A stretch of 10,402 nt of DNA, from UHGV virus genome UHGV-0126656; one strand, given 5' to 3'. How positions within the stretch are numbered: the first letter of the stretch is position 1; every line of letters begins with the position of its first letter. The notes under the pieces are model-generated. The model saw only the letters and a list, made by a program, of their open reading frames with translations. It was not told where the DNA came from and ran no database searches. Shown here one piece after another: positions 1-10,366 of this stretch. A program made the position numbers and the translations under genes. Source of the stretch: a virus.

Positions 1-148
1 TTTTGGCGGATCGGTTGTGCCGGTGACGGTGAAATCACTCGCATTTCCTTCCTGAATACGGTAGTTATCAGGCGTGGCGCGGTGTGGCGGGGCGGTGGCG
101 GGAATATATCCGGCTGTGTATCCGGTGAAAGTGAATGGCCTGTATAGC

Positions 149-170
149 AAAAACCCGTCGCGGGGACGGG
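149..170 (-). terminator. Rho-independent terminator downstream of the 222-aa gene
   Basis: On the minus strand, a GC hairpin (stem CCCGTC/GACGGG, 5-nt loop; plus 154..170) is followed by TTTTT (plus AAAAA 149..153), about 24 nt past the stop at 194. Part of conserved motif copy 1. Confidence 0.5.
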
Positions 171-193
171 CTTCGTTTGATGGCGGGTTTTCG

Positions 194-862
194 TTACCCG
201 TTCACATGAATATCCATCCCGGCGCGTCCGTGCTGCGTGATGGTTATCAGGCCATCTTCTTTGAGTTGTTTCAACAATGCCAGAAAAGTATTGCGGCCCG
301 GTGCACCAATAGGCCAGATCGCCTTAATCAGTCCGGCATGATTGACGCCATGTAGCGGCGCGTTTGCCTTCAGATAATCCAGTACAGTGTCAGCCTTAAA
401 GCGTACAGGCTTTTTAAACTCCTTATTCGTACCAGTTACGACCGTTTCATGTGGTTCTGTACCTTTCGTCTTGCCTGCGTCCGGTACGGCGCTTTCCGGT
501 ACTGTTTCAACTTCCTGCGCGGCTTTTGTACTGATTGCCATCAGACGTGCTTCCAGTTCCCGGATCTGTGCGTCCTTGTCTGCAATGATGCCTTTCAGTT
601 CGCTGTTAGCCGCTTCCAGTTCTTCTACGGCCTCGCTAACTTCCCCAGCGTACAGGAAGCCGATAACCCCACGACCGCAATTAAGCTCATTCACGACCTT
701 CACAAAGACCTCCCATTTTGGCGTCTTCTGGCGCTTGAATACGGCCTTTATTTCATCGCTGGCGACACCTAACACCCCAGCCATATTGCTATGGATGTGA
801 CCGCGTTTATCACGGTATTTGTCATCGGCCCGCTGTTGTAGCATTTTGATTAAATCGTTCAT
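194..862 (-). CDS. Hypothetical protein (222 aa), central coiled-coil, possible C-terminal winged-helix-like region
   Basis: The ORF track gives 194..973 from a GTG start, but that extension overlaps the upstream terminator at 974..995. The internal ATG at 860..862 (MNDLIKMLQQ...) has an AAGGGG Shine-Dalgarno 8 nt upstream and is preferred. Heptad-like acidic segment (EVSEAVEELEAANSELKGIIADKDAQIRELEARL). No family recognised. Confidence 0.55.
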   Translation of the reverse strand: MNDLIKMLQQRADDKYRDKRGHIHSNMAGVLGVASDEIKAVFKRQKTPKWEVFVKVVNELNCGRGVIGFLYAGEVSEAVEELEAANSELKGIIADKDAQIRELEARLMAISTKAAQEVETVPESAVPDAGKTKGTEPHETVVTGTNKEFKKPVRFKADTVLDYLKANAPLHGVNHAGLIKAIWPIGAPGRNTFLALLKQLKEDGLITITQHGRAGMDIHVNG

Positions 863-973
863 CCTTTGCCCCTTAATTAATCCAGAAACATTGTAATTAC
901 TCGCTATTGGTACGATAACAGGCGCGGCGGCTGGTGGATAAGTGTAATAGGTGGGAATGTTGACGCAGATCAC

Positions 974-995
974 AAAAACCCGGCGCTGGGCCGGG
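974..995 (-). terminator. Rho-independent terminator after the 62-aa/AlpA-like operon
   Basis: Minus strand: stem CCCGGC/GCCGGG (plus 979..995) followed by TTTTT (plus AAAAA 974..978), 19 nt downstream of the stop at 1014. Confidence 0.6.
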
Positions 996-1013
996 TCTTA
1001 GCAAGTTAGATGA

Positions 1014-1250
1014 TTATTGGTTATCGCTGTCAGAAAGTAGTCCAATTGATTTAAAGAATTTCATCACATCCTGATAGCGATACAAGAAACCTCCGTGCTT
1101 CAGTGCTGGCATTCCCTCAACCGGATCCGGAAAAGGAGTTCCAGCATCTTTCCACTTCCTGACCAGTTTGAAAAATGAGGACTTACTAAGCCCGCCTAAC
1201 ATTTTTTGCACTTGCTCACGATTAATAAGTATTGTTGCTGTCTTATCCAT
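1014..1250 (-). CDS. Small DNA-binding protein, AlpA/Vis (excisionase-like) family candidate (78 aa)
   Basis: Translation has the short HTH layout of phage AlpA/Vis regulators (LGGLSKSSFFKLVRK ... FPDPVEG ... LYRYQDVMKFF). Tightly coupled to the upstream 62-aa gene (19 nt gap). Assignment is by motif resemblance only. Confidence 0.55.
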   Translation of the reverse strand: MDKTATILINREQVQKMLGGLSKSSFFKLVRKWKDAGTPFPDPVEGMPALKHGGFLYRYQDVMKFFKSIGLLSDSDNQ

Positions 1251-1269
1251 TATTTAATCTCCCGTGTGT

Positions 1270-1458
1270 TTATTTTGCGTACATTAAGGTAAACGCTCTT
1301 TTGGCTTTGCTTAGTTCATATTCGCGTTTTTCCATGATTGCCAACAATTCTTGCGCAGTGGCTGGCACGCCCGCTCTTATCAGCGCAATCTTAGTATCCA
1401 TAGCGCACACTCTTTCACGCGCCATATCGAAGATAATTTCCGCTCTATTGTGTGTCAT
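1270..1458 (-). CDS. Hypothetical small protein (62 aa)
   Basis: ATG at 1458 is preceded by a strong Shine-Dalgarno (AAGGAGG, 5 nt spacer). First gene of a two-gene operon ending at the 974..995 terminator. Confidence 0.55.
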   Translation of the reverse strand: MTHNRAEIIFDMARERVCAMDTKIALIRAGVPATAQELLAIMEKREYELSKAKRAFTLMYAK

Positions 1459-1883
1459 AACATCCTCCTTTTAACATTCAATCAATGCACATAACGAACA
1501 TCATGACCATCAGTAAAATCACTTCCCAGCGTTTCATTCTGCACCCAATTTCAGTCCATTTACTGCTGTATTCCTTGTTTCTGGCTTCTTTATACCCAGG
1601 TGGGCGGCGGGAAAACGTGACATAGATCCCGGTTTCGTTAATCGGTACAATTACGTCTGATTTTTGCGAAAATGGATTTATTGCAGTTGTAGTGCCAGCG
1701 GGGATTGTGAGAAAGGCCCGGGTAGGTTGCTAACTGCTTGGGCCTTTGTTTGGCGCGTGTACGTGAAAAATAGAAATTTGGCAGGGTAGTTGTAGGGATT
1801 TTTCGCGTATGGGCGTTTAAGGCGGGAAGGTTAATTCTAACGCGCGATTATAATTAAGAATAATCAATAGCTTATATTAAAGA

Positions 1884-1917
1884 GTGATTGGTCTGTATAG
1901 CAAAACCCGGCGCGGGT
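1884..1917 (-). terminator. Conserved motif copy 2 with weak hairpin and U-run (possible terminator or element boundary)
   Basis: Plus GTGATTGGTCTGTATAGCAAAACCCGGCGCGGG matches 131..164 (GTGAATGGCCTGTATAGCAAAAACCCGTCGCGGG) with 2 mismatches and 1 indel. On the minus strand a short hairpin (5-bp stem, 3-nt loop) is followed by TTTT. Confidence 0.35.
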
Positions 1918-1927
1918 CCTGGTGGAG

Positions 1928-2023
1928 TTAACCAAAGAGCATCAGACAGATCAGCATTGTGATAAAAATTATGGCTTGCCCGATAGCAAATAGCATAAAT
2001 ACCAGGTATATAAGCCTTCTCAT
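1928..2023 (-). CDS. Possible small hydrophobic peptide (31 aa, MRRLIYLVFMLFAIGQAIIFITMLICLMLFG)
   Basis: Internal ATG of ORF 1928..2110 with a weak GGGGAAG Shine-Dalgarno-like sequence about 10 nt upstream. A single predicted transmembrane helix, sitting between the tape-measure stop and the motif-2 terminator. May be a translation artefact of T-rich sequence. Confidence 0.25.
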   Translation of the reverse strand: MRRLIYLVFMLFAIGQAIIFITMLICLMLFG

Positions 2024-2193
2024 TTGTTTTTCTTCCCCAAAAACACAGCAACACGCGAAACAGGTGAAAAACTGCCACGCCAACTCTAACGGCTGCAATA
2101 ATAAGAGCAAGCAAAAAACAATAAATTATGTTAAACACGGTGTGCGACCGTCTTTGAAGGTCCGCCAGTCTATCCCCCTGGCGTGGGATTTGG

Positions 2194-4398
2194 TTAACGC
2201 CGCCGTGGTTGTAACATGCCTCCAGGTCTTTGCGACTCGCGCTGCATCAGGCGCATTGCTGTGTTTTCTATAGTCTGTTGCAACGCTTTTGAGTCGTCTT
2301 CAGTCCAGCCGTTTGTCGCCTGGATGTTGTTTGTTACGTTCAGTGTGATGCCGCCACCACTGCCAACCAGATCGCGGCCCGGTGTAACTCGTCCACCCTC
2401 GCCGGGGATCATGTACTGTTTCCCGCCAGTAGAGGTAAATAACTCAGGGACACCGTGCTCACCAACCCTGTAAAGATTGCCACCGTTAACCGCGCCGCCG
2501 TTGTAGCGACCACCGCCAAACAAGCCAGTAATGCCAGCCATCAAGGCGCTGATAGCTGACATTGCGACCATCGGGGCCGTCCCCATTGTCGCGGTAGCTG
2601 TCGCCGCTGCTGCCGGGGCCATTGATGATGCGATTGATGCGCCTGTTGCCGCTGCTGTTGCCGCTTGTCCGCTCATTGCGCTGGCGCTGGCTGCCTCGCT
2701 TAAGATCATTTGTTTGACGTATTCAGCGCCCATCTCAGCGATACTTCCCACCACTTTTCCGAGAATGGTAGTCCCGATATTGGCGAAAGCGGTTTCCAGG
2801 TTCTGCGTACCATTAAGCAGGCCGACAACGGCATTTGTAGCGCCACCACTCAGGCCATCAGCCATGTCACCAATCAGGCCATTAATCCCACCTTGCGCCC
2901 GGAATTGTTCCCACTGCGAGGCAAGCAATTCTTCTGCGTGCTGTTGTTTAAGCGCGTTTAGCGTTTCCTCGTTAATCATCTGTTTGTTGAATAGCTCATC
3001 AGCCTGTTGCATTTCAAGGGCATGGCGTTGTTTGAGCGCATCAACGGGATTAAATTGCTCATTAAGCTGTTTTGCTTTTTCTTCCAGTTCGATTTGATGC
3101 TCACGCGCGGCGTTTGTTTCGTAAATCAGGTGCGCAAGGTTTTTCATCTCACTAACCTGTTTTGCCGTTGCGTTAGCGCCCATTTCCTGAACGGCGTCCC
3201 ACATTTCAGCCTCTTTGCTACCCTCAGCAAAGCCCTGGTTAAGTCGTTCCAGTTCTGCGCGTTTCCGTTTCAGCGCTTCTTCTGCCGGATCTTTCTGCGC
3301 GCGTTTCGGTTTATTGCCACCTCCACCGCCATTGTCTTTCAGCTTAATATCAGTGGTGGCCTGCTGTGTCGGTAGCGTTGACACAAAACCCGTAGATTGA
3401 TTGTCTGGCGCTGCGCCTAAGAAGTCGGTTTGTTTGGCTTGAGCGCGGAATAAATCAAGGCCCGGCACAAACGGCTCAAAGGCTGCGGCAAGTGTCCATA
3501 ACTTATCAGCCAATGACGCAGAATCAGATTTCAGCGTTTTAAACCAGCCGGATAGCTCGCGGCAATAATCAGCCAGCGTTTTAATACCGCGACCGACCAG
3601 TTCAGTAACATGCAGCGTCTGGTCGATGGTTTCCAGTAACAGGCTAAAATTTGTTGATAGCTCTGTCATTGCCTGTTCCGTGGTTGTCGGCAGCTTGTTA
3701 AATTCTTTTTCGATTTCGCCTGATCCTTTCAGGATTGCATTTACTACATCCTCAGCCGTCAGTTTGCCATCCAACATGCGGCGACGTAGCTCACCCATTG
3801 AGATCCCCATCTGACTTGCTACGCGCCGCCATAGCTCCGGCATACCCTCCAGGATGCTGTTAAATTCCTCAGCACGGACAATACCGCCGTTAATAGATTG
3901 CCCTAACTGTCGCAAGGCGTTTGCGGCTTCTTCGGATGAACTACCACCAATACGCCCGATCTGCTGTAGTGTCTCTGTCAACTGTAAGATCTGGCCCCCG
4001 GTAGCGTTTGCATCAGACAAAGCTGAAGTAAGGCTTTCCCATAACTTAGTAGTATCCTCAATCTTCATGCCAGTTCGCTTGCTGATCTCAAGAATGCCGC
4101 TAAAATTAGCCTTAGCTTCAACCAGACTACCGGATAGCCGGGATACACGGGCGCGTAGTAGTTTTACGTTGTCCGCGATTTCAATAAAGCGTTTAGCCGC
4201 CATCATTAGCAGGCCAACGTTAACCGCCGCCGCCAGTTTGCTGATTGTCGTATTCAGTTTGTTGATTGAGTTATCAGCGCGCTTTGCGCCGCGTTCAATG
4301 CGATCGAATGCGTCGTCAGCTTGTTTCCCTGCGGTTAATAGCTTCCCTGTGCGCGCATCAACCTCATAATAAATTCTACCTACGTTTGTGTTACTCAT
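2194..4398 (-). CDS. Phage tail tape-measure-like protein (734 aa)
   Basis: Long, mostly helical protein with an N-terminal region typical of tape-measure domains (GMPELWRRVASQMGISMGELRRRMLDGKLTAEDVVNAI), a Gly run (GGGGGNKPKR), a coiled-coil middle, a C-terminal Ala/Gly/Thr/Ser-rich hydrophobic stretch and a Gly-rich tail (LYRVGEHGVPELFTSTGGKQYMIPGEGG). Classification is by resemblance; no search was run. Confidence 0.75.
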   Translation of the reverse strand: MSNTNVGRIYYEVDARTGKLLTAGKQADDAFDRIERGAKRADNSINKLNTTISKLAAAVNVGLLMMAAKRFIEIADNVKLLRARVSRLSGSLVEAKANFSGILEISKRTGMKIEDTTKLWESLTSALSDANATGGQILQLTETLQQIGRIGGSSSEEAANALRQLGQSINGGIVRAEEFNSILEGMPELWRRVASQMGISMGELRRRMLDGKLTAEDVVNAILKGSGEIEKEFNKLPTTTEQAMTELSTNFSLLLETIDQTLHVTELVGRGIKTLADYCRELSGWFKTLKSDSASLADKLWTLAAAFEPFVPGLDLFRAQAKQTDFLGAAPDNQSTGFVSTLPTQQATTDIKLKDNGGGGGNKPKRAQKDPAEEALKRKRAELERLNQGFAEGSKEAEMWDAVQEMGANATAKQVSEMKNLAHLIYETNAAREHQIELEEKAKQLNEQFNPVDALKQRHALEMQQADELFNKQMINEETLNALKQQHAEELLASQWEQFRAQGGINGLIGDMADGLSGGATNAVVGLLNGTQNLETAFANIGTTILGKVVGSIAEMGAEYVKQMILSEAASASAMSGQAATAAATGASIASSMAPAAAATATATMGTAPMVAMSAISALMAGITGLFGGGRYNGGAVNGGNLYRVGEHGVPELFTSTGGKQYMIPGEGGRVTPGRDLVGSGGGITLNVTNNIQATNGWTEDDSKALQQTIENTAMRLMQRESQRPGGMLQPRRR

Positions 4399-4640
4399 GT
4401 CCTGTATATCCGCGTTGTGCGGATACCTCCGATTGTTCTTTACTCTAATAATTCCGCCATGAAACAGTTTATTGCCGCTTCAGTGACTTCGTGTTCAGGT
4501 TTGCTTCAACCAATCACAAAAAACATCGTTTAATAGAATCAATGGCTTATAAAGCTGTATCAGCTATGCTTCTTTGTCAAAGCCACTGAAAATCAAGTTT
4601 TCCCAATGAAATCAATGCTGATATACATCCATATCGTTTT

Positions 4641-4657
4641 TAACGTAATGTACGTTA
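4641..4657. promoter_or_regulatory. Perfect 7-3-7 palindrome TAACGTA-ATG-TACGTTA (candidate operator)
   Basis: Read directly in the 290 bp gap between the 76-aa gene and the tape-measure-like gene; shape fits a dimeric HTH regulator binding site. Confidence 0.35.
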
Positions 4658-4687
4658 TGCGCACTGCGGGAAACGTACTGGATTTAT

Positions 4688-4918
4688 TTACTGGTCGCCG
4701 TTCAGTTCATGCAGAGTCTGTTCTGGCAATGAATCCAGCCAGTTTTCTGCATCCTCCCTGTAACACTCCAGGATGCAACGGTTTGTGAAGTTGATGAAAG
4801 CGGTCAGTGATTCTGCTTCGTAGTTCCTGTGCGCTCTTCTGGCCTGCTTACGTAGTTGTTTCGCTTCTGCCCGCTGGCCTTCGAGTATCTCCAGCCTGTC
4901 TGCAATATCTTGCTTCAT
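4688..4918 (-). CDS. Hypothetical small protein (76 aa)
   Basis: ATG at 4918 with a GAGGAG Shine-Dalgarno 6 nt upstream; 38 nt from the stop of the upstream gene. Charged, helical; no family recognised. Confidence 0.55.
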   Translation of the reverse strand: MKQDIADRLEILEGQRAEAKQLRKQARRAHRNYEAESLTAFINFTNRCILECYREDAENWLDSLPEQTLHELNGDQ

Positions 4919-4956
4919 GTTCAGCTCCTCGCGCGCGCATAGTACTTGTCCGAAAA

Positions 4957-5331
4957 TTAATCGCCCGTCCCATCATTAATATCGATTCCCACGCTGTGCA
5001 ACTGGCTATGAATGTCTCTGCGAATGAGAATTAAACGCCTGATGAACTCCATTTCCTCCGCGATCTGGTTGCTCGGCCCCGATTTCATGTCGATGATTTT
5101 ATTGATAGTTCCAAGCGAATATTCAGCCCACAGACGAAGCGTTTGGCGCTTCATGGCCTGTTTGCTCAGTGGCGAATGTTTCAGGTCTAAGACATGTTCT
5201 GCGAGGGTCTTAGCGATGCCCTGCATGATGCGTAGTGCCAACATGATGATTTTCTCCGGACTTGTGCTAATATAGTTCCCGAACATTGTTCCGAGACTGC
5301 TTATCCTGTTTGTCTTGTCCGATTTGTTCAT
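4957..5331 (-). CDS. Hypothetical protein (124 aa)
   Basis: ORF in the operon on the same strand; ATG at 5331 with a weak Shine-Dalgarno, preceded by an intergenic hairpin at 5350..5369. No family recognised. Confidence 0.5.
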   Translation of the reverse strand: MNKSDKTNRISSLGTMFGNYISTSPEKIIMLALRIMQGIAKTLAEHVLDLKHSPLSKQAMKRQTLRLWAEYSLGTINKIIDMKSGPSNQIAEEMEFIRRLILIRRDIHSQLHSVGIDINDGTGD

Positions 5332-5382
5332 TGGTCACATTGTTAAGTCAGCCGGGGTAATTCCCGGCTTTCTTTTATCCGA

Positions 5383-5925
5383 TCAGTACCGAATCCCTAT
5401 CGCATTGAATACGCGTTTCCGTTGCTCAGCTTCAGGATCGGCGGCCATTTCTGGTTCTGGCTCCGGCATAGACGGGGCGGCATCAAAATGCTCAATTTCA
5501 CGACCGAAATACGAGTTCAGGACAATACCTGCCGAACTATCCACTCCATCAAAATAGCGACGCTGTTCCTCGGTGAGACAGCTACCCAGACGTTCCTCAA
5601 CCTGCGCCATAAACTCAGCATCCGGTGAGAAGTACTCATCCGGAGTCGGAGCACCGCTCTGTTTGTGCATCTCCATTTTCTCTGCGTTCGTTTTCAGCCC
5701 GGCAATGCGTTTCTCCAGTCCGGCGGCTTTAATAGCGTCAGCAACGATTTGTGGGATCTGCGGTTTAATTGTTTCGATAACTTCATTGCTGATTAATTTA
5801 AACTGGGCCATACGGATCGCTTTAATCTGCTTATTTAACAGTGCGCGTTCCCCTTCGTTGGCGGTTTTATCACGCTGTGCTACCAGTTCATCGCCTTTGT
5901 TTGTCAGTACATCAAATGCGTCCAT
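5383..5925 (-). CDS. Hypothetical acidic protein (180 aa)
   Basis: ATG at 5925 with a GGAGGAG Shine-Dalgarno and 8 nt spacer; starts 17 nt after the stop of the upstream gene. Acidic, Pro/Glu-rich C-terminal segment (MPEPEPEMAADPEAEQ). A tail assembly chaperone or scaffold-like role is speculation only. Confidence 0.6.
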   Translation of the reverse strand: MDAFDVLTNKGDELVAQRDKTANEGERALLNKQIKAIRMAQFKLISNEVIETIKPQIPQIVADAIKAAGLEKRIAGLKTNAEKMEMHKQSGAPTPDEYFSPDAEFMAQVEERLGSCLTEEQRRYFDGVDSSAGIVLNSYFGREIEHFDAAPSMPEPEPEMAADPEAEQRKRVFNAIGIRY

Positions 5926-5942
5926 TGTCTTTTCTCCTCCGA

Positions 5943-6269
5943 TTATTTAAAAGTGCTTATTGACACGCCGAAACGACGACTTAATTCAAAAAGGAGTCGC
6001 GCCTTTGCAGTGCCTTCCATGTCTTCCGGCATTTCAGACTGAAGTTTATCAGCTACTTCATCAACAAGTGGCCGAACCGTTTCCACGAACTTGTCCGCAA
6101 TATAATCAGCAGAACGCATCACTTTTTCCTGGAATTCCTCACGGCGTTCCTGGGCGGCTGATTTAGGGGCTGTCGTGCGCTGAAAATAACTGTCTAATGA
6201 ATGCATGGCATCTGCTCCTTTTACTTTGATTGATGTTATTTCTTTAATTGTGTTTGCTTTGATTTTCAT
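5943..6269 (-). CDS. Hypothetical small protein (108 aa; alternative 87-aa form starting at 6206)
   Basis: ORF directly downstream of alpA on the same strand. The internal ATG at 6204..6206 has the better Shine-Dalgarno (AAGGAG, 8 nt spacer), so the true start may be 6206. Confidence 0.55.
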   Translation of the reverse strand: MKIKANTIKEITSIKVKGADAMHSLDSYFQRTTAPKSAAQERREEFQEKVMRSADYIADKFVETVRPLVDEVADKLQSEMPEDMEGTAKARLLFELSRRFGVSISTFK

Positions 6270-6345
6270 GCTGCCTATTCCTTCAGAAATTGCGGTAGCT
6301 AGCTTTTTAAATCAATAGGTTATTTGATAATCTCAGTAGCTGTTT

Positions 6346-6537
6346 TCATTGGTGGCGAGCGCCTTTGTTTTTATAGAATTCCAAAATCTCAGATCGGATA
6401 AACTTAATTCGTGCACCGACCGGAGTAACCGGAACGGGCCAACCTTTAATCTTGTTAATCCAGCGGAATATAGTGCGTCGGGTAACGCCGAATAAAGCGG
6501 CTACCTCGTTCACCGTCATTAATTCGCTATCATTCAT
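6346..6537 (-). CDS. alpA: AlpA-family prophage regulatory protein / excisionase-like HTH (63 aa)
   Basis: Translation MTVNEVAALFGVTRRTIFRWI... is a typical AlpA/Xis-type helix-turn-helix. GAGGTGA Shine-Dalgarno 4 nt before the ATG. Sits where AlpA-like regulators are usually found in P4-integrase islands. Confidence 0.8.
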   Translation of the reverse strand: MNDSELMTVNEVAALFGVTRRTIFRWINKIKGWPVPVTPVGARIKFIRSEILEFYKNKGARHQ

Positions 6538-6556
6538 GTTCTCACCTCAAAAAGTA

Positions 6557-6590
6557 GCGGTGAGGAAAAATATGGGAAAACCCTCACCGC
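6557..6590 (-). promoter_or_regulatory. alpA leader stem-loop (9-bp stem) with U-run, overlapping anti-SD/SD logic
   Basis: Minus strand reads GCGGUGAGG-16 nt loop-CCUCACCGC-UACUUUUU, then the SD GAGGUGAG and AUG. The CCUCACC arm can pair with either the upstream arm or the alpA Shine-Dalgarno. Confidence 0.35.
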
Positions 6591-6729
6591 GCCCTGAATG
6601 AAATTAAAGACCAACATTACTGTTGATACTTAATATTATATTCCTCATGTCCCTGTTTCACATCTTTTACCATATAGGGAAAGGGGATATTCTGTAATGT
6701 TTACAAAACTTTTAATTAGCAAAAAATAA

Positions 6730-6758
6730 TTGCGCATCTCACGTAATACAGGGATAAT
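6730..6758 (+). promoter_or_regulatory. Candidate sigma70 promoter (TTGCGC-17 nt-GATAAT)
   Basis: -35-like TTGCGC (6730..6735) and -10 GATAAT (6753..6758) with 17 nt spacing, pointing toward the plus-strand terminator at 6825..6851. Confidence 0.3.
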
Positions 6759-6764
6759 ATTACT

Positions 6765-6851
6765 CAAGGGCTGGTAACCCTTACTCAAAATGTGATCTAT
6801 AACTACAACGATTGATTTCACTTCCCCGCTCTCTCCGGCGGGATTTTTTTT
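6765..6851 (+). ncRNA. Candidate small RNA (~85 nt), divergent from alpA
   Basis: Bounded by the candidate promoter and a strong intrinsic terminator. No ORF (ATG TGA only). Has a 5-prime stem-loop (AAGGG-CUGGUAA-CCCUU) and an AU-rich linker before the terminator. Confidence 0.3.
6825..6851 (+). terminator. Rho-independent terminator (plus strand)
   Basis: GC hairpin (CCCGC ... GCGGG, 6825..6842) followed by eight T (6844..6851). No plus-strand CDS lies upstream. Confidence 0.6.
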
Positions 6852-7971
6852 GCCTGCAATCACCACATCAAAACTAATTAAAATTAGATGCCGTTTAAAC
6901 GCAATATAACGCATTCTGACGGCCTTAATTTTTGGCAATGCATTTGCTCAGGTGTGATTAGATTGATTCGTCTGGCGTGGAATGGTGCGGCGGTAATATC
7001 AGATCTCAGCGTTCTGTGTGGCGATTCCTCAGCTCTGAGGAGTGGGCGTCCGTCATTCAGTCTCAGCACCTTGCTCAAACGAGATCGGCTGCGATGGCGT
7101 TGTAGGCCGCATTCTGTCGTTTAATGAGACGTGCCTGATTGGACAATCTGAAATCTGGTTGGTGAGACTATTCAGGCGAGACTGTTCAGCGGGGAAAGCG
7201 GCGCATGTCGATGAATCCATTCCTGGATTAATCGGCGTTGTTCCGGTGTCTGGTGAAAATTTAATGAAATCGCATCAATTATAATGCGTCTAAATCGCTC
7301 TGTGGCGACGTGAAGTTTTCAGGTAAGCAAGTGCGGTTATATGTGTTCATCGCGTTACAGGCACCATTCCGTTCGAATTTGGCACGGTCAGGATGGTTTG
7401 CGGTGGTCGGCGGCGGGGATAAACTTGCTTGAGTGGTCACCTCAGCCTGCTGTGCGTCGTGTGATGGTACTGTCTGCACCTGGCTATACGCTGCTTTGCT
7501 GCTGTTTCCTGTCTGGTCTGTATACGCGATAAAACCCATCGGCTTTACAGTGAGTGAGTTTTTTGCGCTTTGCTTTCCATTCGGTTTGCTTACTGCTGCT
7601 GTGTGTCTGTGCGGTAGCTCAGAAAGCTGTTGACGATAACCATCACTGCTAAGCCCGTCTTTTAAGCTGGCAATTGCTCGAAGCCTTCCGAAGGCCCACC
7701 AATAAGAAATCACCCTTTGAGATATACCGCGCTCCCCATGAACGAATGCCATGATGGTTTGTTGGTCTGCTGTTCAGGTTGTACGTGAGTGAATGGGCGT
7801 TTCCAGCTTGCTGGAAATGATTGCGCTAATCAGCATGGTTAATGCTCGCAACCAGCCGACCTATCAGGCGGCGAAATAATTCTTCTGTTTAACTCTAGGC
7901 GACTCTCTATGACCGACCGGGAGGCTAAAAAACTCCCGTCGCCTAGAATTCTTAATAGTAGAATTCTTACT

Positions 7972-8082
7972 CGGCAACTTTTGACCCACCCTAACGGCAA
8001 CTTTTGACCCACCAATAACGGCAACTTTTGACCCACCTGAAGGCATAAATTGACCCACCCTAACGGCAACTTTTTACCCACC
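7972..8082. repeat. Iteron array (about 5 direct repeats, 23-24 bp period), putative replication origin
   Basis: AACGGCAACTTTTGACCCACC repeats beginning 7972, 7993, 8017 and 8062, with a degenerate copy at 8041..8059. Flanked at 7944..7969 by two TAGAATTCTTA repeats and at 7918..7938 by a hairpin. Lies just downstream of the Rep-like gene and its terminator. Confidence 0.7.
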
Positions 8083-8102
8083 TGAATTCATGGAATTAAG
8101 GC

Positions 8103-8129
8103 AAAGAAAAGGCGGGAACATTGCCCGCC
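8103..8129 (-). terminator. Rho-independent terminator after the Rep-like gene
   Basis: Minus strand: hairpin GGCGGG/CCCGCC (plus 8111..8129) followed by TTTTCTTT (plus 8103..8110), immediately after the stop at 8138. Confidence 0.5.
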
Positions 8130-8137
8130 TGATTCCG

Positions 8138-8665
8138 TTATTTCATGTTGTACGGCTTGAATAATAACTGGTATTCGTTGCACTCCCTTTCTGCCGATCC
8201 TGGTATATAGCCTTCAGTACGCTCAACAAGTTTGAAGTGGTTGACCAGACGATCGAGGCATTTTTTAACCGTGTTTTTTGATAGCCTGGCTCGTTTGTCG
8301 ATTGTTCCCCTACCAACCCTGCACCATCCCAACGGTGAGTTTTTGCCAGTACCAGCGAAGTAACAAAGAGCACGTAGCACAGCCTCGTCGTTGACTGTAT
8401 GTTCTTTCTCCCATCTTTCGTACAGTTTGCGGGGCAATACTTCATCAAGTCGGTTCAATGTGTCCAGGTAGCGCAGGTTGCCACGCCAGGCTTGCTCCTG
8501 CTGTTTTGCCTCGTGATGATCTGTTTCCTCGTGATTATCTGGCGTGTGTTCTTCGTGTTTAGTCTCTTCGTTTTTGGGTGCTTTATTCCGTAACTCGTTA
8601 ATTTTATTTAAAAATTGACGAACATCATTGTTTGTTTCTTGTTCTACTGCTAGCATATCAGACAT
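8138..8665 (-). CDS. Putative iteron-binding replication initiator, winged-helix (phage O N-terminal-like), 175 aa
   Basis: The ORF track starts at 8779, but the ATG at 8663..8665 (MSDMLAVEQ...) has an AAGGAG Shine-Dalgarno 8 nt upstream and is preferred. C-terminal segment (AVLRALCYFAGTGKNSPLGWCRVGRGTIDKRARLSKNTVKKCLDRLVNHF) resembles winged-HTH replication initiator domains; acidic His/Glu-rich N-terminal region. Function inferred from fold-like motif plus the adjacent iterons. Confidence 0.5.
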   Translation of the reverse strand: MSDMLAVEQETNNDVRQFLNKINELRNKAPKNEETKHEEHTPDNHEETDHHEAKQQEQAWRGNLRYLDTLNRLDEVLPRKLYERWEKEHTVNDEAVLRALCYFAGTGKNSPLGWCRVGRGTIDKRARLSKNTVKKCLDRLVNHFKLVERTEGYIPGSAERECNEYQLLFKPYNMK

Positions 8666-8839
8666 GAGAAATTCTCCTTTAGCTTGTTTCTCATACCGCC
8701 CCCGGAATGTTGCAGCATGCCGGGGGCTTTTATTTGTGTTGATCCTATTTTCGAACTCTGGATCTTTCGTTGCAAACATGGATTTAAGTTCTTGATATTG
8801 AATAATTTATTCCACTTAATTGGAATAATGGAATAATTA

Positions 8840-8868
8840 GCGAAAAAGAAAAGCCGGACGAATCCGGC
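8840..8868 (-). terminator. Rho-independent terminator downstream of the integrase gene
   Basis: Minus strand: hairpin GCCGGA-UUCG-UCCGGC (plus 8853..8868) followed by TTTTCTTTTT (plus 8840..8852), about 100 nt past the int stop. Confidence 0.5.
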
Positions 8869-8969
8869 AAATTGAATACAGGTTTCTTATCAGGTGATAG
8901 TTAAACCACACAAAACAAATGCTTATACAAAATGCAAAATTGCGCTTTGCAAAAAAGCCGCTTAATTAT

Positions 8970-10178
8970 TCATTCCGGTTCTAGAGGATTGCCGTTACCT
9001 GCCAATATTGAATCAATAGCGTCGGCGTAATCCTGCATCATTGCTCGCCGTTGCTTCAGGTAGGCCGCCTGGTTATAAATCGCCCTGATTCCCTTTGGAA
9101 CATGGGCCAATTGGATTTCGACCCAATCAGGGTTATACCTGCCGGATTCGTTAAGCGCCGTGCTGAATGTTGTGCGCCAGCCGTGGCCTGTAACCGTCGA
9201 TTTGAATCCGATACGCTCCAGGGCTTTAAGGATGGCACTGGCTGAAAGTGGCTTATCCATGAATCGACCAGGGAACACAAAAGCACTGTATCCGCTGCGG
9301 GTAAACTGGTCCTGTAATAGCTCGACCGCCTGCCGGGATAGCGGGACCACATGCGGGCGGCGGGCCTTCATGACTTCAGCGGGTAGGGTGATGGTTGCCG
9401 ATTCCAGATCTACCCACTCCCAGCGCATTAAACGCAGTTCTGCGGTCCTTAGGGCGCTTAATATAAGCAAACGTATTGCCGTCTGAATCTGAACGCTCCC
9501 GGCTCTCTCAAGGGCTTTGTAGAAGGCCGGGATTTCACTAATTTGCAGCCATGCGTTATGACCTGGGCGTCTGGCTTTCAATGCCGTGTCCAGATCTGCA
9601 ACCGGATTTCTGCTAACCAGTTCGGTGATAACGGCAAATTTGAAGATCTCCCCGATACGCTGGCGTAATTTCCTGGCCTGTTCCGGTGCGGTGCGCTCTT
9701 TCTTCTGAAGCAATGCCAGTACGTCACGGGCGGTTATATCAACGATTGAACGTTTTCCCAGCACGGTGTAAACATCTTTCTCTAGTGCCGATCTGACCTG
9801 CTTTGTATAGCTCTCACTCCAACCGCTCACTCTGGTAGCAAACCAGTCTTCCGCTACCGTCTTAAAACTTGCCGCCATGTTGAGCGCATCAATGGCTTTC
9901 TCCTTGCGCGCTTCTTCCATTGGGTCAATTCCCTGGGCGATGAGTAAACGGCTCTCTGTGGCGCGTTTACGTGCTTCCTTCAAGGTAATCAGCGGATATA
10001 CCCCAATAGCCTGTAACCGCTCTTTCTTGTCTATCCAGTACCGGAATCGCCAGTATTTGCTGCCATTGGGATGCACCAGCAAGAACAGGCCAGGTGTCTG
10101 TGAATCGGTGAGTTTGTAGGGCTTGTCCTTCGGCTGGGCGGCCTCTATGCCCTTTGCTGTCAGTGGTGTCTTGCTCAA
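8970..10178 (-). CDS. int: Tyrosine recombinase, P4-type phage integrase (402 aa)
   Basis: N-terminal arm-binding signature (PYKLTDSQTPGLFLLVHPNGSKYWRFRYW) and C-terminal catalytic region (HGWRTTFSTALNESG ... VEIQLAHVPKGIRAIYNQAAYLKQRRAMMQDYAD) characteristic of P4-family integrases. Start codon is TTG at 10176..10178 with a GAGGT Shine-Dalgarno 8 nt upstream. Confidence 0.9.
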   Translation of the reverse strand: MSKTPLTAKGIEAAQPKDKPYKLTDSQTPGLFLLVHPNGSKYWRFRYWIDKKERLQAIGVYPLITLKEARKRATESRLLIAQGIDPMEEARKEKAIDALNMAASFKTVAEDWFATRVSGWSESYTKQVRSALEKDVYTVLGKRSIVDITARDVLALLQKKERTAPEQARKLRQRIGEIFKFAVITELVSRNPVADLDTALKARRPGHNAWLQISEIPAFYKALERAGSVQIQTAIRLLILSALRTAELRLMRWEWVDLESATITLPAEVMKARRPHVVPLSRQAVELLQDQFTRSGYSAFVFPGRFMDKPLSASAILKALERIGFKSTVTGHGWRTTFSTALNESGRYNPDWVEIQLAHVPKGIRAIYNQAAYLKQRRAMMQDYADAIDSILAGNGNPLEPE

Positions 10179-10366
10179 AACCGGATACCTCGATCTAACG
10201 ACTCGATAACCCCGCTCATGTATCCGGCGCGTTCGGTTGCGTTCGGCAGGATAAGTAACGGGCGTATTAAGGGGAACACCTTACAGCACAAGGGCTAACG
10301 ATGAAATAGAATTGTTCGAATGCTGGAAGAAATGTTACTCATCACTTCTTCCTGAGGGAACGACTT

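Follow-up and report, generated by a model that had tools for sequence, protein, structure and literature searches.

Do the three small genes at one end of the UHGV virus genome UHGV-0126656 belong to a second mobile element, or are they part of the island in which they lie, and what might they do there? The window, by which we mean the whole 10,402-nt stretch analyzed here, carries these genes on its minus strand, and they encode proteins of 62, 78 and 222 amino acids (aa). The original prediction had read them as a second regulator module, perhaps the control region of a second element, degraded or lacking an integrase, at the shared integration site, or else accessory cargo with derepression or interference functions. 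Our best explanation is that the 62- and 78-aa genes form a cargo cassette with an excisionase-type protein of helper-phage type, that the 222-aa gene encodes a regulator of the YffS family, and that all three lie at the attR-proximal end of one integrated satellite-like island of the Escherichia coli K-12 CPZ-55 family. Taken as a whole, this explanation is tentative, and we put it slightly short of an even chance. The genes and their closing signals are as follows.

1270-1458, minus strand: 62-aa gene, with ribosome-binding site AAGGAGG
1014-1250, minus strand: 78-aa gene, with ribosome-binding site GGGAG, separated from the 62-aa stop by 19 nt
973-1000, minus strand: strong intrinsic terminator closing the 62/78 operon (-18.7 kcal/mol, z -4.45, U5 tail)
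194-862, minus strand: 222-aa gene
148-175, minus strand: intrinsic terminator 3' of the 222-aa gene (hairpin plus U5, -14.7 kcal/mol, z -2.3; repeat family D2)

The three genes are genuine, as had been predicted. The same three coding sequences are annotated by RefSeq in a genome of 99.7% identity, and strong terminators were found. The ratio of nonsynonymous to synonymous polymorphism (pN/pS) between island alleles was 0.12-0.40 for the 62-aa gene and 0.13-0.24 for the gene of the 78-aa helix-turn-helix (HTH) protein, indicating that both are truly coding and under purifying selection. Of 5426 complete E. coli genomes, 45 had the 62/78 pair and nine had the 222-aa allele. Pfam, NCBIfam and PADLOC gave no match for any of the three proteins, a PDB sequence search yielded nothing useful for them, and Rfam had no family within the window. 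The literature we searched held no experimental data on any of the three proteins and no account of these E. coli islands.

We determined the boundaries of the island from the host sequence and from related islands. The host segment is E. coli chromosome, with the end of eutA at ~55 and the start of eutB at ~10368; the island between them extends from ~56 to 10347 (~10.3 kb), with all genes on the minus strand. Three features mark its ends.

48-55: attR copy of the 8-bp att core CTTCCTGA, at the eutA 3' end, an exact 8-mer common to both termini
10348-10355: second att core CTTCCTGA, just ahead of eutB
130-155, minus strand, with a second copy at 1883-1908: 26-nt boundary motif AGTGAATGGCCTGTATAGCAAAAACC, the terminus of the sequence common to islands with different integrases

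The terminal 123 nt (48-170) showed 90% identity to the terminus of an island inserted in yghO; together with the att core at 48-55, this shared terminal arm places the module ~140 nt inside the attR end. We saw no internal copy of CTTCCTGA; the core was found by comparing both ends, and the interior was not exhaustively searched for the 8-mer. The AGTGAATGGCCTGTATAGCAAAAACC motif was present in loci L001-L004, L049, L050, L055, L057 and L060-L062, and homology to ychJ-type islands begins exactly at 131. The gene order int, AlpA, small open reading frames (ORFs), tape measure protein (TMP) gene, 62, 78 and YffS-family gene was seen at eutA/eutB, at ychJ/rssA and at yghO. The TMP-62-78-YffS part of this order was kept in six out of six annotated loci of related islands carrying the pair, and an exact-protein look-up found it in nine out of ten places, the tenth being interrupted by insertion sequences. 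IntZ and the ychJ-type integrase share only 30% identity. The same order at three sites with such divergent integrases, and an att core at both termini, argue for a single element. The island also has satellite-type features, namely int, att repeats, an AlpA-type regulator and a replication module; capsid and lysis genes were not found.

A second element, degraded or lacking an integrase and lying in tandem at this site, could account for the module's own terminators and for a 40-nt direct repeat (130-170 and 1883-1922) that brackets the module. This repeat, however, consists of the terminator plus the boundary motif and differs in sequence from the att core, and most related islands have only one copy of it. 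The module occupies the same position at three different att sites and remains linked to the replication region in the circularly permuted ychJ-type islands. We consider a second element extremely improbable. In every related island examined that carried the pair, the module lay in the same order beside the TMP gene, the kind of joint carriage that the original prediction had named as refuting its reading.

The permutation itself is worth describing. The ychJ-site islands (L002/L003 at ~12150-14000, compared with 6870-8861 of the window) are circular permutations of the eut-site islands: their replication/regulatory region follows the third gene and does not stand beside int, and the int-attP unit lies elsewhere on the same circular map.

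If the module is part of the island, is it a fixed part? In K-12 CPZ-55, yffQ-yffR stand in place of 62/78 and are followed by yffS and eutA. Other islands carry, in the same place, genes for 121 and 140 aa (L066) or for 175 and 114 aa (L067), and the proteins of these two cassettes had no family matches. All of the alternatives share their flanks, a conserved block and a mini-ORF upstream and a terminator region downstream. Thus, at least three two-gene cassettes, of which the 62/78 pair is one, replace one another at a hotspot flanked by the tape measure gene and the island regulator. The 62-aa protein is island-specific and always accompanies the HTH gene, and its allele varies independently of the HTH allele across islands. 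We found no relatives of it outside E. coli, and none in phages, GTDB species representatives, IMG/VR or the PDB. The suggestion of accessory cargo fits the 62/78 pair, one of at least three cassettes, with an HTH gene that comes from the Xis position of the probable helper phages; we read the 222-aa gene as that of the island regulator.

Such a hotspot, with alternative cassettes as in P4-like satellites and chromosomal islands of the phage-inducible kind (PICIs), raises the question of whether the pair is an anti-phage defense, abortive-infection or toxin-antitoxin cargo, which satellite hotspots usually contain, with the HTH protein as autoregulator or antitoxin and the 62-aa protein as effector. 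The pair is a small two-gene operon with tight spacing, and YffQ and YffR of the alternative cassette resemble, by inspection, signal-peptide or membrane proteins. But the pair lacks any PADLOC, Pfam or NCBIfam match, no toxin-like features were identified in the 62-aa protein, and a defense role would leave unexplained that the DNA-binding part of the 78-aa protein tracks two helper Xis-type alleles, as described below. We regard a defense or toxin-antitoxin cargo as unlikely.

We then asked what kind of protein the cassette encodes. The 78-aa protein has the small MerR/Xis-type winged HTH fold of the AlpA/Xis family, in agreement with its first description as a small excisionase-like HTH protein. 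A profile search gave one weak match, phrog_4745 'DNA binding protein' (1.9e-5), the only PHROG match for any of the three proteins, and there was no match to Phage_AlpA (PF05930), HTH_17 (PF12728) or TIGR01764 (E<=0.1 or 0.01). Relatives occurred in only 10 out of 50,697 phage records, those of mEp013, mEp010, mEp044, MagusPhagus, mEp021, mEp515, mEp554, Salmonella phage Oslo (two records) and Proteus phage Pm34; nine of these records have an integrase annotated under the match. The phage gene closes the early-left operon and overlaps int, which is convergent with it, at the 3' end of int. Among IMG/VR prophage loci with enough sequence, the homologue abutted a convergent int in 28 out of 28, and its type was that of the Int (18, 7 and 3 loci). 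With this position and this match to Int type, the phage gene behaves as a recombination directionality factor (RDF). The mEpimmI phages and their integrase types have been described (PMC11893012), and that typing agrees with the homologue types.

The islands carry two alleles of the HTH gene. Residues 1-50 of allele A (78 aa, the allele of this window) are 82-88% identical to the protein of phages with type II integrase, and residues 1-50 of allele B (76 aa) are 84-92% identical to the mEp021-type protein. The two alleles share their last ~25 residues, and their DNA is near-identical 3' of about codon 56, which places a recombination breakpoint inside the HTH gene. By these comparisons, the 78-aa protein derives from the Xis-position gene of mEpimmI-type phages, and its DNA-binding part tracks the candidate helpers.

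An excisionase fold, a gene ~1 kb from attR, a circular-form order of 62, 78, 222, attP and int, and a conserved 26-nt motif near attR in many islands would all suit an RDF of the island itself, working with IntZ at the attR arm with the 62-aa protein as cofactor and leaving the 63-aa AlpA as a transcriptional activator only. However, HTH proteins of 99-100% identity serve islands with different att arms and with integrases of 30% identity, and near-identical integrases (93-94%) accompany either HTH allele, the alleles being only 58-61% identical to each other. The HTH protein is thus uncoupled from the island integrase and is unlikely to be its cognate RDF. Related islands with other cassettes (K-12, L066 and L067) have no 78-aa gene, and the motif lies ~75 bp from the core in eut islands compared with ~1.9 kb in ychJ islands. 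We rejected the 26-nt end motif as an RDF site, since its spacing from the att core varies by ~1.8 kb from one island type to another. An RDF of the island's own is, in our view, quite unlikely.

The winged helix could also belong to a small-terminase-like packaging specificity factor of the gpNu1 type that directs the helper terminase to the island. All of the phage homologues adjoin int, far from packaging genes; mEp013 has a separate gene for a protein like the small terminase subunit (TerS) at ~26.4-26.9 kb, which matches the TerS-like proteins of the islands themselves, and many islands already encode an Sf6-type TerS. A packaging factor is very improbable.

In the phage att sites, GTGTACCAAAT-N-GTGACCAAA was conserved in both arms of both phage types (mEp013/mEp021 genome ends; L051-L053 and L048). 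We read it as a probable arm-type site of the integrase, in keeping with the conserved N-terminal domain reported for the integrases in PMC11893012. Allele-specific direct repeats lie between GTGTACCAAAT-N-GTGACCAAA and the core in these arms.

The likely source of the 78-aa protein can be compared with that of the gene directly upstream of the hotspot.

2194-4398, minus strand: tape measure protein gene (PF20155, 9.6e-54)

The best phage match of the island TMP was mEp013, with ~50% identity over nearly the full length (50.6%; 50.2% over 731 residues), and its best phage matches were the same set of phages that carry relatives of the 78-aa protein. TerS-like and gpI-like proteins of sister islands also matched mEp013. 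The mEpimmI phages (mEp013, mEp021) are most likely the helpers of the island. According to a December 2025 preprint (PMC12822802), tape measure genes are essentially unheard of in satellites.

The island TMPs fall into at least four types (window, L004, L050, L054-L058 and L066). The other types share with phage TMPs only the N-terminal ~80 and the C-terminal ~107 residues, which suggests that their central rulers have been replaced. In L062 (8664-9197), the TMP gene is followed by that of a 177-aa protein 55% identical to the mEp013 tail assembly protein I. Present in some islands only, this gpI-like gene adds a second tail gene to a satellite-like island.

Further investigation concerned the third gene. 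Its position is occupied in other islands by genes for proteins of 232-269 aa. Residues 27-218 of the 222-aa family aligned in hhalign with the 252-aa/YffS alignment (probability 95.6%, E 1.2e-8), and the 252-, 236- and 232-aa members scored 23.0-25.7 bits against the Pfam HTH_3 cutoff of 23, the 222-aa protein itself having no Pfam match. From the HTH_3-scoring relatives and the hhalign match, we derived an architecture of XRE-type HTH (~25-60), coiled-coil helix (74-119), disordered linker and winged helix (157-220). The AlphaFold2 model was weak overall (predicted local distance difference test score, pLDDT, 61), with a confident long helix at 74-119. Foldseek superposed the C-terminal domain on MarR/BlaI/Fur/H1 winged helices, and a GAPGR motif was invariant in this domain in the family alignment. 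The model agrees with the coiled coil and possible winged-helix C-terminus foreseen for this protein, and the alignments and model indicate that it is a YffS-family regulator, of the same family as YffS of E. coli K-12. N- and C-terminal domains have been shuffled among members of the family, which is typical of immunity regulators.

The 222-aa family is narrowly distributed. Its profile had only 15 matches among 1.84 billion representative proteins, mostly coiled-coil noise. Searches of phage genomes, IMG/VR and GTDB species representatives yielded no relatives of the 222-aa protein, and it showed no relation to the YffL-like 213-aa protein of the island. yffS has been listed among the genes that are essential by TraDIS (sequencing of sites where transposons have inserted) alone (PMC5821084); this may reflect H-NS occlusion.

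What might this regulator control? The region between the tape measure gene and the cassette and the region upstream of the 222-aa gene contain the following features.

1681-1827, minus strand: conserved non-coding block upstream of the hotspot, with invariant columns in six islands
1538-1680, minus strand: family 1 leader segment, variable, which separates the conserved block from the mini-ORF; a candidate promoter/operator region
1478-1537, minus strand: 19-aa hydrophobic mini-ORF MKRWEVILLMVMMFVMCID at the operon head, ending 20 nt before the 62-aa start
890-918, minus strand: putative sigma-70 promoter of the 222-aa gene (TTATCG, 17 nt, TACAAT), read by eye from the sequence

The conserved block is 89% identical in K-12 CPZ-55 upstream of yffQ (over 1690-1815 of the window) and was present in 300 out of 5426 genomes. 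The mini-ORF (19-20 aa) is kept at the amino-acid level directly ahead of every cassette type, including K-12 yffQ, and could encode a leader peptide or a small membrane protein. Between these two constant parts, the leader segment (~150 nt) showed three sequence families across islands. The leader family matched the type of the third gene in 18 out of 18 informative cases (20 loci compared), whichever cassette lay between them (allele A, allele B, yffQR-like or 175+114 aa). In leader family 2, the 12-nt motif TTTGTTGNTAAA occurred 8 times within 1.3 kb, compared with 0.12 expected, and one pair of copies, a short way upstream of the regulator gene, is arranged as an inverted repeat. A shuffle test for a stretch common to the leader and the region upstream of the regulator was significant for families 2 and 3 (p=0.01 and 0/300 shuffles, respectively). 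Taken together, these patterns suggest that the cassette leader and the YffS-family gene are both under the control of the YffS-family protein.

Candidate sites in the window were less clear-cut. The 890-918 promoter was not picked up by a consensus scan. A weak dyad, TTATCGTACCAATA, overlaps it and recurs at 1640-1653, a match that was chosen post hoc and is not significant. We set aside a dyad, TWATYGTACCRATW, found in the leader and in the 222-aa promoter, as it was also post hoc and ~10/14 identity is expected by chance (p=0.07). A sigma-54-like TGGCAC-N5-CTGCA in the leader was rejected, because it was not conserved in other islands.

We propose the following mechanism. The 62/78 pair is a swappable cargo cassette, transcribed behind the conserved block and the mini-ORF and ended by the strong terminator. 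Its 78-aa protein, of DNA-binding fold and captured from mEpimmI-type phages, the most likely helpers, would act on helper-type excisionase sites, where it might promote or block helper excision or integration, or affect Xis-dependent transcription. We suggest this action by comparison with P2 Cox, which has two roles and is the precedent for an Xis-type protein of a helper regulating a satellite as well. The 62-aa protein could be the island-specific partner of the 78-aa protein, and the 222-aa protein would control the promoter of the cassette leader, and probably its own, putatively as a repressor. Of all this, the gene structure, synteny, fold class, exchange of cassettes, relationships to phages and both patterns of co-variation are observed; which phages are the helpers, the DNA targets, the direction of any effect on the helper, a contact between the 62- and 78-aa proteins and repressor activity are inferred.

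A more specific form of this mechanism is excisionase mimicry. Here, the helper excisionase DNA-binding domain, in two alleles that match two helper Int/Xis types, would be combined with a C-terminal tail of the satellite's own and the 62-aa partner, and would either force excision or induction of the helper prophage or prevent its lysogenization, under a fast-evolving YffS-type repressor. We find this form doubtful. We know of no satellite described so far that targets the site-specific recombination step of its helper.

Several observations weigh against the cassette-and-regulator explanation. We found no coupling between HTH allele and TMP type. PMC11893012 makes no mention of an excisionase in the mEpimmI phages. 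Helper att-arm repeats of the CACATCGT, ATCCGTTC and GTGTACCAAAT types, taken from mEp013/mEp021, were not found above chance in the islands, and motif searches of the islands found no DNA target for the 78-aa protein. The C-terminal tail common to alleles A and B may come from shared backbone DNA and not from selection. On the side of the regulator, the 18/18 association between leader and third gene could partly be physical linkage among related islands. For leader family 1, that of the window, the motif shared with the region upstream of the 222-aa gene was not significant (shuffle p=0.07), and the intergenic leader had no phage DNA match.

The remainder of the island provided additional observations. 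The AlpA-type regulator named above is encoded as follows.

6346-6537: AlpA, 63 aa, with an HTH_17 match

Upstream of alpA, a stretch at 6887-6970 on the minus strand encodes 28 residues with 64% identity to the tail at the C-terminus of P0065, which has 142 aa and the same type of winged helix as the 222-aa protein, and the stretch looks like the remnant of a paralogous gene. Five iterons of ~23 nt (7958-8082) adjoin the gene of the 213-aa protein (8138-8779, minus strand), which is 98.6% identical to K-12 YffL and has weak DnaD-like and replication-initiator PHROG matches. The iterons and the YffL-like protein are probably the origin and initiator of the island. Just downstream of the TMP gene, at ~1927-2022 on the minus strand, lies a very hydrophobic 31-aa ORF, MRRLIYLVFMLFAIGQAIIFITMLICLMLFG, with its own terminator (1900-1922); it was found only in the lineage of the window, L001 and L049, and its likeness to small membrane toxins is one of composition alone.

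The unusual feature of the proposed arrangement is that a helper-type excisionase domain is kept as satellite cargo; the hotspot, the excisionase-fold regulator and the XRE repressor are of known kinds. If the explanation is true, the long-unexplained CPZ-55 could be read as the decayed form of a phage satellite, with YffS as its regulator. The comparisons tie islands that carry a tape measure gene to mEpimmI, a recently defined group of gut coliphages, and the hotspot has cargo without a match to known defense systems. An excisionase-type protein that is uncoupled from its own integrase and tracks two helper alleles makes a directly testable case for a new kind of interaction between satellite and helper, at the steps of excision and integration.

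Among known systems, CPZ-55 (K-12; intZ, yffL-yffS; MG1655 2558691-2565480) is the closest to the island of this window. It shares the eutA/eutB site, an IntZ match, YffL and the conserved block, and it has a YffS-family gene beside eutA. YffM, YffN, YffO and YffP are homologous to small ORFs of the island, YffO being the TerS-like protein. CPZ-55 differs in that the TMP gene has been lost, in its yffQ-yffR cassette and in a different C-terminal domain of YffS. It is a decayed, TMP-less member of the island family.

The hotspot resembles the accessory hotspots of P4-like satellites and PICIs, with alternative cassettes between conserved flanks near the end of a small element. It differs from them in that its cargo, which has no known defense match, includes a helper-derived DNA-binding protein, and in that the element has a tape measure gene. 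The 78-aa protein is a small MerR/Xis winged-HTH protein like the RDFs lambda Xis, P4 Vis, P2 Cox, GIsul2 Xis (8c3t) and RdfS, and its phage homologues are, as RDFs are, adjacent to integrase and co-varying with it. Unlike these RDFs, the 78-aa protein has no Pfam AlpA/HTH_17 match and has a long insertion at residues 36-55, and in the islands it is uncoupled from the integrase and lies in a cargo hotspot with a 62-aa partner.

The 222-aa protein is comparable to XRE/Cro-CI-type repressors such as lambda CI and Stl of the Staphylococcus aureus pathogenicity islands (SaPIs), with a putative HTH_3-type N-terminus, a predicted dimerization region and a variable C-terminal domain. The YffS family shares with XRE repressors the shuffling of N- and C-terminal domains, and the type of regulator co-varies with the upstream non-coding segment. 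Unlike lambda CI and SaPI Stl, the 222-aa gene is co-directional with and downstream of its presumed target, and its protein ends in a predicted winged helix in place of a peptidase or oligomerization domain.

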